A stretch of DNA of 64,000 nt, from NCBI GenBank assembly GCA_965261545.1, contig CBDHDF010000002.1:96001-160000 (forward strand), written 5' to 3'. The notes under the pieces are model-generated. The model ran no database searches. It was not told where the DNA came from and saw only the letters and a list, made by a program, of their open reading frames with translations. Position 1 is the stretch's first letter. The number at the start of each line of letters is the position of its first letter. This document shows, piece after piece, positions 50,372-63,342 of the stretch. Position numbers and translations under genes: made by a program. Source of the stretch: Bdellovibrionales bacterium (lineage in GTDB: Bacteria; Bdellovibrionota; Bdellovibrionia; Bdellovibrionales; UBA1609).

Positions 50372-53300
50372 ATGAAGAATCTTGAACATATGCATATAAA
50401 AAAAGGCAGTCATATGAAAACAATTTGTAATAGCCTCATTTTAGGTATCATCATATTGTTATCTTTTTTATCCTTAGGTTGTCAAAAAAAGAAAGCATGG
50501 ACTCCCCGTTCAATTAAGGCACCACAAACACTGGTGGTACAGCCTGGAGATAGGCAAGTCACCTTGTCTTGGAAAACCTCCACCAACAGCGGAAAAAAAA
50601 CCATTACCAGTCACCAATATCGAAAAAAAGTAGGAACAGGAGCTTACGGAAAATGGATGAGTATTCCCAATAGTGGACAAGGAAAGTCCCATGAAACAAG
50701 CTTCATCGTCACGAAGCTCACCAATGGAACTTCCTACACCTTTCAGGTAAGAGCTATTAATAGTGGTGGACACAGTGCCCCCTCCAATGCTGTCACAGCC
50801 ACACCACGGGCCGCTGCCCCCACAGCCCCCACGGGTCTCACTGCAAACCCTAGGAGTGGAGCGGCTTATTTAATATGGACAGCTTCTGGCAGCCCTGGAA
50901 GTAGTTCCATTATCAAACACCAGTATCGAATGAAAGCAGTGGCCAACAACGGAAGCTACAAATCTTGGACAGATATTCCAAGCAGTGCTCCTGGCCAGAC
51001 AAACGCAACGAGTTTTACGATGACAGGTCTCACCAATGGAGCCACCTACACCTTTCAATTGAGAGCCGTCAACCGTACCAACAATAGCCTCCCATCCAAT
51101 GAAGCTACGGTCACTACGAGTGACACAACTCAACCCCCTACCGCCCCTAGAAATTTTACTGCACACCCTAGAGACAAAGCAGTTCTTTTAGCCTGGGGAG
51201 CTTCTAGCAGCGATGGGGGCAGTCTCATCACCAAGCACCAATATCAAAAAAAACAAGGGTCTGGAAACTATGGAAATTGGACCGATATTCCAAACAGTGC
51301 TCCTGGCGAGACAAACGCCACAAGCTTTACGTTGACAGGTCTCACCAATGGGACTTCCTACACCTTTCAGGTGAGAGCTACAAATCATAATAATAATACG
51401 GACTACTATAGTCCCGCTTCCAGTCCTGTTACAACCACTCCCATGGTCAGTGCCCAAAAGCCCGAAGCTCCCACAAATTTGACTGCACATTCGAGGAATG
51501 CAGGGGCTTATTTAACTTGGACTATAGGCAGTAATGGGGGCAGTCCCATCACCAAACACCAATATCGAAAGAAGCAAGGAACCAACGGAGTCTATGACAA
51601 TTGGGAGGATATCCCAAGCAGCGCTTCTGGCGAGACAAACGTCACAAGCTTTACGGTGATAGGTCTCAATAATAGAACGACCTACACCTTTCAGGTGAGA
51701 GCCAAAAATAGTGAAGGTTATAGCCTCGTCTCCAATGTTGTCACAGTCACACCTGGGGCCGTTGAAGCCCCCACAGCCCCTAGGGGTCTCACTGCAAACC
51801 CTAGGAGTGGAGCGGCTTATTTAATATGGACAGCTTCTGGCAGCCCTGGAAGTAGTTCCATTATCAAACACCAGTATCGAATGAAAGCAGTGGCCAACAA
51901 CGGAAGCTACAAATCTTGGACAGATATTCTAAGCAGCGCTCCTGGTCAGACAAACGCAACGAATTTTACGGTGCCAGGTCTCACCAACGGAGCCACCTAT
52001 ATCTTTCAAGTGAGAGCCTTCAATCGCAGCAATCATAGCCCCCCATCCAATGAAGCTAGGGTCACCACGAGTGGCACAACTCAACCCCCTACCGCCCCTA
52101 GAAATCTTACTGCACACCCTAGAGACAGAGAAGTTCGTTTAGACTGGACACCTTCTAACAGCGATGGCGGAAGCCCCATCACCAAACACCAGTATCGAAG
52201 AAAGCAAGGAGCCAACGGAGTCTATGACAATTGGGAGGATATTCCAAGCAGCGCTCATGGCCAGACAAATGCAACAGCCTTCACGGTGAGAGGTCTCACC
52301 AATGGAACTTCCTACACCTTTCAATTGAGAGCCAAAAATAATACAAATTCGAACTATAGCGGAGAATCCAGTCCTGCCACAACCACTCCCATGGCCAGTG
52401 CCCAAAAGCCCGAAGCTCCCACGAACTTGACTGCAGATGCGAGGAATGGAGGGGCTTATTTGACCTGGGTTATAGGCAGTAATGGGGGCAGCCCCATCAC
52501 CGAACACCAATATCGAAAGAAGCAAGGCTCTGGAAGCTATGACAATTGGACCAATATTCCAAGCAGCGCTTCTGGCCAGGCAAATGTCACAAGCTTTACG
52601 GTGACAAGTCTCACCAATGGGACTTCCTACACCTTTCAGGTGAGAGCCAAAAATAGTAAAGGCGAGAGCGGAGCATCCACCGATAGTCCCACTGTCACAC
52701 CAAAGACAATTCCCACAGCCCCCACAAACTTTAGTGCCAACGCTAGGGATCAAGGGGTTTATTTAACCTGGGCTACAAGAAGTGATGGGGGCAGTCCCAT
52801 CACCGAACACCAATATCGAAAGAAGCAAGGGAGCGGAAGCTATGAAAATTGGACGAATATTTTAAGAAGTGCCTCTGGCGAGGCAAATGCCACAAGCGTT
52901 ACGGTGAGAGGTCTCATCAATGGAACGAACTACACCTTTCAGGTGAGAGCCAAAAATAGTGAAGGTTATAGCTCCGTCTCCAGTGCTGTGAACGTAAGCC
53001 CGTCAGGATCGGCCCCCAAACCTCCTGGAGCTCCTAGGGACCTCACAGCAAATCCTAGGAACGGAGGGATTTACTTAACTTGGAGGGCTCCTAGCAGTGA
53101 TGGTGGGAATCCCATCACCAAGTACCAGTATCGCAAAAAACAAACAACTGCCAACTACGATACTTGGGATGACATTAAAGACAGTGCCCCCAGTGGTGCC
53201 AATAACACAAAGTTTATGGTGACAGGTCTCACCAATGGAACGTCCTACACCCTTCAGTTACGAGCGTATAATCGCGCCGGCGGCCCAGGTGCCGTCTCCA

Positions 53301-63100: not shown

Positions 63101-63342
63101 CAGGTGCAACCAGCACCAAGAAAAGCCAATGGACTCTGTCTTCCCCTCTTCGATCCGCCTATTGGCTGGCCAATGTGAGGTGCAATGGTGAGGAACAGTC
63201 TCTTCTCAATTGTGGTGGTGTGTTCCAGTCCTCCCTCGGTCAACATAATTGCCAACTGACAGATGCGGTCCATATCACCTGCACCACCGTGGATGCAGAT
63301 AACAACAACAATTACACTGTTGGCCCTCCGGAGAAGGAGTAG
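60193..63342 (+). CDS. Fibronectin type III repeat lipoprotein with C-terminal SRCR domain (4 canonical FN3)
   Basis: Lipobox CLGC, Pro/Gln repeat linker, FN3 repeats; SRCR at about 62956-63282. Confidence 0.9.
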   Translation: MIMNIICKIRNSYKKIHLYLIVIMISALCLGCQKKKKWKSITQAPTTSAPVAPASVPQQSPPSSPTPQPPPVSPVSQQQQLPPPSSPAPQPPPVSQQQQLPPPSSPAPQPPPVSQQQQLPPPSSPAPQPPPVSQQQQQPPPVPLAQQPPTAPKDLMASSRDTRVYLEWKAPSSGGGTITHYQFRKKPRGSHEYHAWKNIPNSGPGGSNNASFGVGSLTNNHIYYFQVRAVNSARHGPASREVGAKPSSFPRSPNSPRLIGAIRHRGNVHLTWDPPTDDGGSPIVRYGYYIQHDGSNYDNIRYKNIPESGPGEVHERSYLVEENLARNSYHFFIIAFNMDGQKSDHSRTYSVNIPYHHLAEFRQAATSPRSPPHNLTGTARDKEIYLKWGFTSNHNNGGKPITHHQYRKKAGTGSYESWVNIPNSAFSKAHDRSYMVTGLQNNTEYTFQVRSVNSVGESSASNEVALTPRAWVRPPLPRAPLAPQAFTAENTCTDVSRELRTHLSWKSPLDSGTSPITKYQYRAEIEGWNIVTQDWTDIPPERGTLLPKSHSTTDIHYGLEYTFKVRAVSKVSPGLPSTGQKVTPKKWRVGKRDIGFQPSPKVVAGIAGSYKINPYRDIPSLPQGGTCTIALTEGRGFSYEDTSKVLSWPSSITVGAKALEGTIQCSPNNLMYCTNLSNPSDTTPPPPHDWTYSLEVIEALNTLSTQSKNGSIVLSWKVSPMGTVPHSFEYRKKAGTNNYRSWTPIPNSGAGQANRESYSVSSANGVMQTFELRAKSSPGTNATFSDYNAAKGMALPALTNFRGTTGEADPGTGGSRWVRLSWNRMSSSYRSFIAKYVLEASMDGGTTWFTSSEFNPPRSALDASATHTYIGTELGRREMWKFRISAKTSSTMGEIRSIPSSTLSIRTSNFNALNERIANGEIRLIHGGRDRGGGEGVAQFGHSGSWRAICHDSSWGIEEAQVACRRAGYPGATSTKKSQWTLSSPLRSAYWLANVRCNGEEQSLLNCGGVFQSSLGQHNCQLTDAVHITCTTVDADNNNNYTVGPPEKE
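60360..60620 (+). repeat. 57-bp coding tandem repeat (QQQQLPPPSSPAPQPPPVS)
   Basis: Three near-exact units plus partial flanking units. Confidence 0.9.

Follow-up and report, generated by a model that had tools for sequence, protein, structure and literature searches.

To what use could a bacterium put a domain that serves animals, from sponges to mammals, as a main tool for recognizing microbes? The question is raised by three adjacent, co-oriented genes in the stretch of DNA analyzed here (hereafter the window: 64,000 nucleotides, positions 96,001 to 160,000 of contig CBDHDF010000002.1, assembly GCA_965261545.1, from an uncultured Bdellovibrionales bacterium). Their products, designated A, B, and C and referred to together as the trio, each combine a lipoprotein-like signal, a stalk of fibronectin type III (FN3) units, a three-domain neck, and a scavenger receptor cysteine-rich (SRCR) domain at the C-terminal tip. 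All three lie on the forward strand: A (1944 amino acids (aa)) at window positions 50372-56206, B (1271 aa) at 56325-60140, and C (1049 aa) at 60193-63342. We regard it as moderately probable that these proteins are cell-surface adhesins of graded height, a bacterial counterpart of the design of class A scavenger receptors.

The open reading frames (ORFs) of the trio contain no internal stops and are separated by 118 bases (A-B) and 52 bases (B-C). In A, delimited by its ORF, Pfam matches, and an FN3-unit profile, a signal peptide read from the sequence and ending in L-S-L-G-C (Cys37; 50372-50482) is followed by 14 FN3 units (50519-54868; Pfam, Tandem Repeats Finder (TRF), and unit profile), by a neck consisting of an Ig-like domain with the motif YKINPY and two FN3-type domains, the second with GEADPGTGG (54869-55813; alignments A1/A2 and model), and by the six-cysteine SRCR domain with a short conserved tail (55814-56203; Pfam, alignment, and model). 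In B and C, delimited by ORF, Pfam, and alignment, a Pro-rich linker stands after the lipobox; the linker of C is rich in Pro and Gln and is encoded, after the lipid anchor, by 3.7 copies of a 57-bp unit with 95% matches (60410-60619, TRF). B continues with 7 FN3 units (56568-58757), the neck (58779-59738), and the SRCR domain (59739-60137), and C with 4 FN3 units (60643-61929), the neck (61942-62937), and the SRCR domain (62938-63339). The motif YKINPY starts at residue 1526 in A, 845 in B, and 610 in C, and GEA[DN]PGTGG at residues 1703, 1030, and 806, respectively. A sequence-only reading of this DNA had described three adjacent, co-oriented paralogs with these domains in this order, and the ORFs, Pfam matches, and motif positions all agree with it. 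The C-terminal modules (approximately 445 aa: Ig-like, two FN3-type, and SRCR) are only 49-54% identical in pairwise comparison, and the trio is therefore seen as a set of old paralogs rather than as a recent amplification. As a side observation, the intergenic space between A and B is filled at 56252-56318 by an A/G-rich imperfect repeat of 20-23 bp.

The C-termini of the trio are genuine SRCR domains. With the Pfam model PF00530 (curated cutoff 26.1 bits), A scored 74.8 bits (profile positions 1-99 of 100), B 70.9 bits (1-100 of 100), and C 59.4 bits (8-100 of 100); a whole-genome scan agreed with these per-protein matches, and the same model matched 0 of 14 control genomes. In a sequence search, the A tip matched chains of CD163, SCARA5, MARCO, and DMBT1 from solved structures. 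A structural model of the SRCR domain was built for A alone from a 25-row alignment, B and C being represented by sequence only, and reached a predicted local distance difference test score (pLDDT) of 81.1 and a predicted template modeling score (pTM) of 0.76. Compared with the PDB by Foldseek, it gave 64 matches at E <= 0.001, and every listed one was an SRCR domain or an SRCR-containing protein. The top match was SCARA5 (7c00; E 2.7e-12, target-normalized template modeling (TM) score 0.87, root-mean-square deviation (rmsd) 1.9 Å), and further ones were M2BP, DMBT1/SALSA, SCARA1, CD163, and MARCO (target-normalized TM 0.84-0.89, rmsd 1.7-2.3 Å).

SRCR domains with six cysteines form group A and those with eight form group B. 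The six Cys columns are invariant in all 25 rows of alignment A4, those of A, B, and C included, and the two extra cysteines of group B (at the 'RC-GR' and 'LGCG' positions), present in the mammal/amphibian DMBT1/M130-like rows, are absent from all three paralogs, which bears out the earlier assignment to group A. Outside the signal region, A and B contain no cysteines other than the six of the SRCR domain (C has four more), and this confinement in A and B fits an exported, oxidized tip. In the same alignment, the trio domains are 33-43% identical to animal SRCR domains and carry lineage-specific features, namely an insertion of 4-5 residues before the 'YW[LM]' strand and S-W-R-A-I-C in place of W-G-T-V-C. 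A tail past the last SRCR cysteine (N-rich, then Y-T-[IV]-G-P) is also kept in all three (56167-56203, 60090-60137, and 63295-63339) and could be a sorting or packing element.

For the stalks, the Pfam model PF00041 (cutoff 25 bits) gave 375 bits in A (E 1e-114), 223 in B, and 100 in C, in 14, 7, and 4 stretches, and a profile made from the trio proteins themselves found the same numbers of stalk units plus one neck unit apiece. Both families named in the sequence-only reading are thus matched above cutoff in all three proteins, with the SRCR fold matched in addition by the model of A. The three stalks align collinearly, A9-A12 with B2-B5 (55-64% identity) and A14 with B7 and C4. Units 2-4 and 5-7 of A form a duplicated triplet (A2/A5 87%, A3/A6 68%, and A4/A7 75% identity), and TRF reported a 315-bp period in 6.7 copies within the A stalk (50836-52951). 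Duplication of a block of three FN3 units lengthened the stalk of A. With an anchor at the N-terminus, the SRCR domain at the C-terminus, and stalks of unequal length between them, the tips would stand at three distances from the membrane. A model of the 445-aa module built from the three sequences (mean pLDDT 55.4) gave moderate confidence for three beta-sandwich domains and left the SRCR part unresolved (block pLDDT 21-30). Residues 101-312 of the neck model matched tandem FN3 structures (Z 10-11), and the nearest Atlas clusters to the first neck domain were Ig domains of the He_PIG type (score 0.89), which is a lead only to its possible identity.

Signals of bacterial lipoproteins consist of a charged n-region, a hydrophobic core, and a lipobox ending in Cys. 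In all three N-termini of the trio, a start containing K/R leads into a hydrophobic stretch and then L-x-L-G-C, after which comes QKK or QKN; the lipobox-like sequence is L-S-L-G-C in A and L-C-L-G-C in B (Cys40) and C (Cys32). An internal start at Met15 would give A a signal of 23 aa. The signature LxLGCQK occurs in no other genome ORF of 150 aa or more; two other FN3 lipoproteins share F-L-C-L-G-C.

These stalks belong to a larger set. A neck-profile search of the ORFs of the genome retrieved, besides the trio, three further lipoproteins with FN3 arrays, six proteins in all. P0116 (G000 C7, 1286 aa) consists of about 12 near-identical FN3 units and little else, and P0120 (G000 C2, script coordinates 18056-21424, 1123 aa) has an array of 8-9 near-identical FN3 units with an acidic end. 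P0124 (G000 C6, minus strand, script coordinates 45476-48136, 887 aa) carries a lipobox (F-L-C-L-G-C), then a Pro-rich linker, FN3 units, and the two FN3 units of the neck (profile positions 95-288), and ends where an SRCR domain would start; the 1.5 kb downstream of this tipless paralog contained no SRCR remnant. Since P0124 shares the stalk and the two neck FN3 units without an SRCR domain, the latter looks like a tip that was added to, or cleanly lost from, a pre-existing stalk family.

The full layout was met nowhere else. A word-indexed protein search with the whole module retrieved 106 proteins at E <= 0.001 among 8000 candidates, of which only A, B, and C covered 96-100% of the module and the rest 19-44%, corresponding to SRCR alone. 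An exhaustive HMMER search of 1.84 billion representative proteins with the SRCR-less part gave 800 matches at E <= 0.001; of the 150 matches listed, A, B, and C alone spanned the whole 314-position profile and most others were one generic FN3 unit. A scan of species genomes with the whole C-terminal module produced 123 pattern matches, none of them confirmed. The domain itself is scarce as well, as had been claimed from the sequence: one of 40 close relatives had an SRCR match, and none of 400 further genomes sampled throughout the phylum did; within the family, with the genome of the trio included, the count was 7 genomes out of 109 and 4 genera out of 35.

Two of the other carriers in the family are small genomes, G017 (1.5 Mb) and G477 (1.4 Mb), which encode giant proteins with many near-canonical SRCR domains (105-124 bits each). 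In G017 (L009, 4126-10903), a 1979-aa protein has an HExxH zinc-protease-like motif, five SRCR domains interleaved with six cadherin repeats, and a C-terminal LRR block; a 266-aa ORF with a signal peptide lies immediately upstream and could be its split-off N-terminus. In the single-contig genome G477 (C1, approximately 1346000-1369400), two adjoining frames of about 4500 aa together account for 14 SRCR matches. The genus g41 is represented by four species, each with one secreted protein of 270-290 aa and a single divergent SRCR domain (approximately 63-66 bits), whose gene adjoins a conserved outer-membrane-like gene in both loci read. Elsewhere, P0028 contains six SRCR domains that alternate with FN3 and, in addition, Big_2, cadherin, and RTX; in P0058 and P0098, SRCR is combined with Calx-beta and an autotransporter barrel; the order FN3-SRCR-LRR is seen in P0097 and P0100-P0102, with GH92 in P0100 and a sulfatase in P0101; and P0104 and P0106 join MopE repeats to SRCR. 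The partners in these proteins (autotransporter barrel, RTX, cadherin, and LRR) are modules typical of secreted or surface proteins. Bacterial SRCR domains are hence rare but recurrent, and what the searches made met in no other protein is the lipobox-stalk-neck-tip layout, while SRCR as such recurs in other bacterial surface proteins. No paper found described a bacterial SRCR protein, with most subscription journals outside the coverage.

Regarding the origin of the tips, a tree of 106 SRCR-domain rows placed those of the trio in one clade (Shimodaira-Hasegawa-like approximate likelihood ratio test (SH-aLRT) 96) on an unresolved backbone, which points to one fusion followed by gene duplication. 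An approximately unbiased (AU) test (38 rows, LG+G4) did not reject a clade of trio tips and G017-type domains (p 0.15). When g41 and G477 were added (43 rows), the trio clade received support of 99/91 and a clade of trio and g41 97/71, and a branch with 97/93 parted trio and g41 (six rows) plus one autotransporter SRCR from the other 36 rows; under a site-heterogeneous model, the trio-g41 grouping retained an SH-aLRT of 89. Both branches are long and the grouping could be an attraction artefact, but it is supported by a changed core motif shared by trio and g41, W-[RL]-[AS]-[IV]-C-D-D as against the usual W-G-T-V-C-D-D. The simplest reading of these sequences is that the SRCR lineage has long been resident in the bacterial family and is not a fresh capture from an animal, whether its ultimate donor was an animal or not. 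Thus, of the 'animal-type' domain announced by the sequence-only reading, the SRCR identity stood, and the term should not be taken to imply a recent capture, as the tips form one clade that groups with SRCR domains of the same family, nearest to the secreted ones of g41. A foreign origin by base composition was considered separately and rejected, the third-position guanine-cytosine (GC) content of 0.47-0.49 reaching only the 83rd-89th percentile; the total GC content of the trio genes (0.48-0.50) corresponds to the 94th-98th percentile of genome ORFs of at least 300 aa.

What the tips may bind can be approached through DMBT1/SALSA. According to excerpts of the published account (PMC7043408), the SRCR domain of this protein binds its ligands via two surface cation sites, one formed by D1019, D1020, and E1086 and the other by D1020, D1058, D1059, and N1081; the exchanges D1019A or D1020A abolish binding, and sites of this type are widely conserved across SRCR domains. 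In alignment A4, A keeps all six of these residues (D,D / D,D / N / E), B keeps three of six (D,T / D,N / N / N), and C two of six (D,S / A,N / N / D). A scaffold kept in all three tips, with the canonical cluster whole in one of them, fits a diversified ligand specificity. By analogy with SALSA, the tip of A probably binds anionic polymers via bound cations, and those of B and C, judging from their replaced residues, probably bind other ligands.

As adhesins of graded height, the trio proteins would work as follows. The N-terminal lipid anchor would hold each protein in the envelope, B and C having a flexible Pro-rich linker next to it; FN3 beads, 14, 7, or 4 in number, would form the stalk that bears the conserved three-domain neck; and one disulfide-bonded SRCR domain would be placed at the far C-terminal end, the three paralogs presenting their tips at three heights. 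Through metal ions in its acidic cluster, the A tip would bind anionic surface polymers or glycoproteins of another cell, in the manner of DMBT1/SALSA, MARCO, and CD163, and the tips of B and C, with their changed cluster, would attach to other ligands. Lipidation, surface exposure, extension of the stalks, and the class of ligand are what we infer here. As for the target of such adhesins, we lean slightly towards a eukaryotic host or partner, and prey bacteria are a serious candidate as well. The most far-reaching version, in which a non-flagellated Bdellovibrionales-type bacterium built its own 'scavenger receptors' that capture cells by metal-bridged binding of anionic polymers, with tips diversified within the family, is rather doubtful; if true, SRCR recognition modules would be a shared currency of animals and bacteria and not a one-way loan.

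Several points weigh against the adhesin explanation. Two of the three tips lack the full cation cluster, and the canonical mechanism may hold for A alone. B and C carry an unusual Cys at lipobox position -3, and their predicted lipidation and surface exposure, like those of A, follow from sequence rules. The neck model reaches only moderate confidence (mean pLDDT 55). No export route for surface lipoproteins was identified, no obvious partner, secretion, or regulatory gene adjoins the trio, and none of the sequencing runs listed as holding the stretch is an RNA run.

The genome itself (4.32 Mb in 11 contigs, 96.8% completeness, 41.6% GC, with the trio on a 920-kb contig) belongs, on the evidence of protein comparisons, to a deep-branching Bdellovibrionales-type organism: for PGK, the nearest named Bdellovibrionales/Bdellovibrionaceae metagenome-assembled genomes are 53-55% identical, and the other 11 of 14 loci 36-45%. 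No flagellin was found in the genome of the trio at this completeness or in three reduced relatives, and a g41 genome has six. Ankyrin repeats (Ank_2) gave 145 matches in G006 (1.6 Mb, one contig) and 43 in G017 (1.5 Mb), an extraordinary load for genomes so small, and neither of the two has a flagellin match; together, this hints that reduced genomes of this type represent eukaryote-associated lineages within the family. The genome of the trio has 13 ankyrin matches, at least 8 of them within one 1328-aa frame. The ATP/ADP translocase, a marker of energy parasitism, had no match in four genomes, a result that is uninformative since the positive control was also without a match.

Around the trio, the window contains housekeeping genes (ftsH, tilS, ndk, pgk, gap, aconitase, an Opp-type transporter, and a sigma-54 activator), with insertion sequence (IS) elements at its 5' end and no tRNA or Rfam match. 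A scan for promoters and terminators at the trio gave no operon-defining signal above shuffles. The mobile elements at 187-8200 comprise two IS21 IstB-type ATPases, a Mutator-family transposase, a DDE_Tnp_1 transposase, and an integrase-core fragment. Among the housekeeping genes, at 18161-19954, a protein of 597 aa contains three stretches of DUF285 (BspA-like, 'Mycoplasma') repeats. On the minus strand at 35805-48460, Pfam matched none of four ORFs in a row (1250, 310, 1292, and 1346 aa); two of them have an extremely high AT content (GC 0.31-0.32, at the 2nd-3rd percentile for this genome), and the 1346-aa ORF has an HExxH zinc-protease-like motif and a lipobox-like start. Lying directly upstream of the trio, this set could represent a foreign island.

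Among the alternatives to adhesins, we consider it unlikely that the SRCR tips imitate receptors of a eukaryotic host and compete for ligands, or mask the bacterium from uptake, without anchoring it. Such mimicry would suit a family that includes small, ankyrin-rich, flagellin-less genomes of eukaryote-associated appearance, two of which carry the giant SRCR-cadherin(-LRR) proteins, and single eukaryotic-like proteins are reported to let bacteria escape sponge phagocytosis in a 2026 paper (PMC13747020). However, the SRCR domains of the trio have diverged from those of animals, to 33-43% identity, with a lineage-specific insertion and an altered core motif, their nearest relatives sit in a flagellated genus of the same family, and a long stalk with a lipid anchor is suited to reach and attachment rather than to soluble competition.

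Quite unlikely, too, is a role in self-recognition, in which the tips would bind each other or the polymers of their own cell surface and build aggregates or biofilm. The SRCR-rich aggregation factors of sponges are an analogue of this, and a coat on the cell surface could be made up of the FN3-only lipoproteins and the three paralogs, whose binding faces have diverged; nevertheless, nothing points specifically to homophilic binding, and no polysaccharide or biofilm genes lie beside the trio. It is improbable that the proteins stay inside the envelope, as spacers or binding proteins without a role in cell contact. Lipoproteins of double-membraned bacteria face the periplasm by default, and the lack of an identified surface export route agrees with that orientation, but the chain of 17 beta-sandwich domains plus SRCR in A would far exceed the usual width of the periplasm (by commonly quoted sizes), and in the other bacterial proteins retrieved SRCR is fused to secreted or surface modules. 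Finally, that eukaryotic DNA misassembled onto bacterial genes produced the SRCR ends is very improbable, for although the four sequencing runs holding the stretch come from one sample of one study and are not independent, there are three separate in-frame fusions with about 50% identity through neck and SRCR, the third-position GC content is within the genome range, the trio lies on its long contig amid housekeeping genes, and related SRCR domains occur in four other genomes of a sister genus.

Taken as adhesins, the three proteins offer an unusually clean test case, with a single tip each, cation sites that are intact, half-changed, and mostly changed, three stalk lengths, and a tipless relative as control. 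The ligands of the tips would tell whether SRCR domains serve bacteria in host attachment, prey capture, or mimicry, and would aid the reading of the scattered SRCR proteins in other uncultured, often animal-associated bacteria.

Among known systems, the trio resembles the MAT adhesins of Bdellovibrio bacteriovorus, described in PMC10769870 as trimeric fibres with a phage-like stalk and chimeric tips, in being a set of paralogous, elongated, surface-displayed proteins with varied adhesive tips from a related predatory lineage; it differs, on a comparison by description only, in its stalk of FN3 beads on a lipid anchor and its SRCR tip. With the eukaryotic-like proteins of sponge and protist symbionts (ankyrin, LRR, FN3, and cadherin) it shares binding modules of host type, and its family has ankyrin-rich reduced genomes, but the host association of the trio organism is conjectural, and in the papers found on such symbionts SRCR figures as a domain of the host and in none as one of the symbiont.

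Within bacteria, the SRCR proteins of g41 (L025-L027) are the nearest in the trees and have the unusual core motif in common with the trio, yet they have a plain signal peptide, a different Cys-containing N-terminal part, and neither FN3 stalk nor lipobox, and their SRCR domain matches the profile only from position 16-18. P0028, P0058/P0098, P0032/P0045, P0097/P0100-P0102, and P0104/P0106 likewise display SRCR in large multi-domain proteins, often beside FN3. In contrast to the trio, they use an autotransporter barrel, RTX, or no visible anchor (Pfam gave no match to PF03797 or PF00353 in any trio protein at E <= 0.01), often have several SRCR domains each, near-canonical ones with 92-124 bits per domain as against 59-81 in the trio, and in no case have the lipobox-stalk-neck-tip layout.

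The closest parallel in design comes from animals. Class A scavenger receptors have an N-terminal membrane anchor, a long stalk, and one six-cysteine SRCR domain at the distal C-terminus, and the trio resembles MARCO, SR-AI/SCARA1, and SCARA5 in the order of anchor, stalk, and terminal SRCR, in the TM of 0.87 reached by the SRCR model of A, and in the acidic cluster of A. Its stalk, on the other hand, is made of FN3 with no collagen or coiled-coil family detected by Pfam, its anchor is a predicted lipid and not a type II transmembrane segment, and identity in the structure matches is approximately 33-40%. The trio is therefore an analogue in design and not a member of the SCARA family. It joins a known domain to the familiar stalk-and-tip logic of adhesins, in an architecture of which the searches made gave no second case, in proteins or in print.

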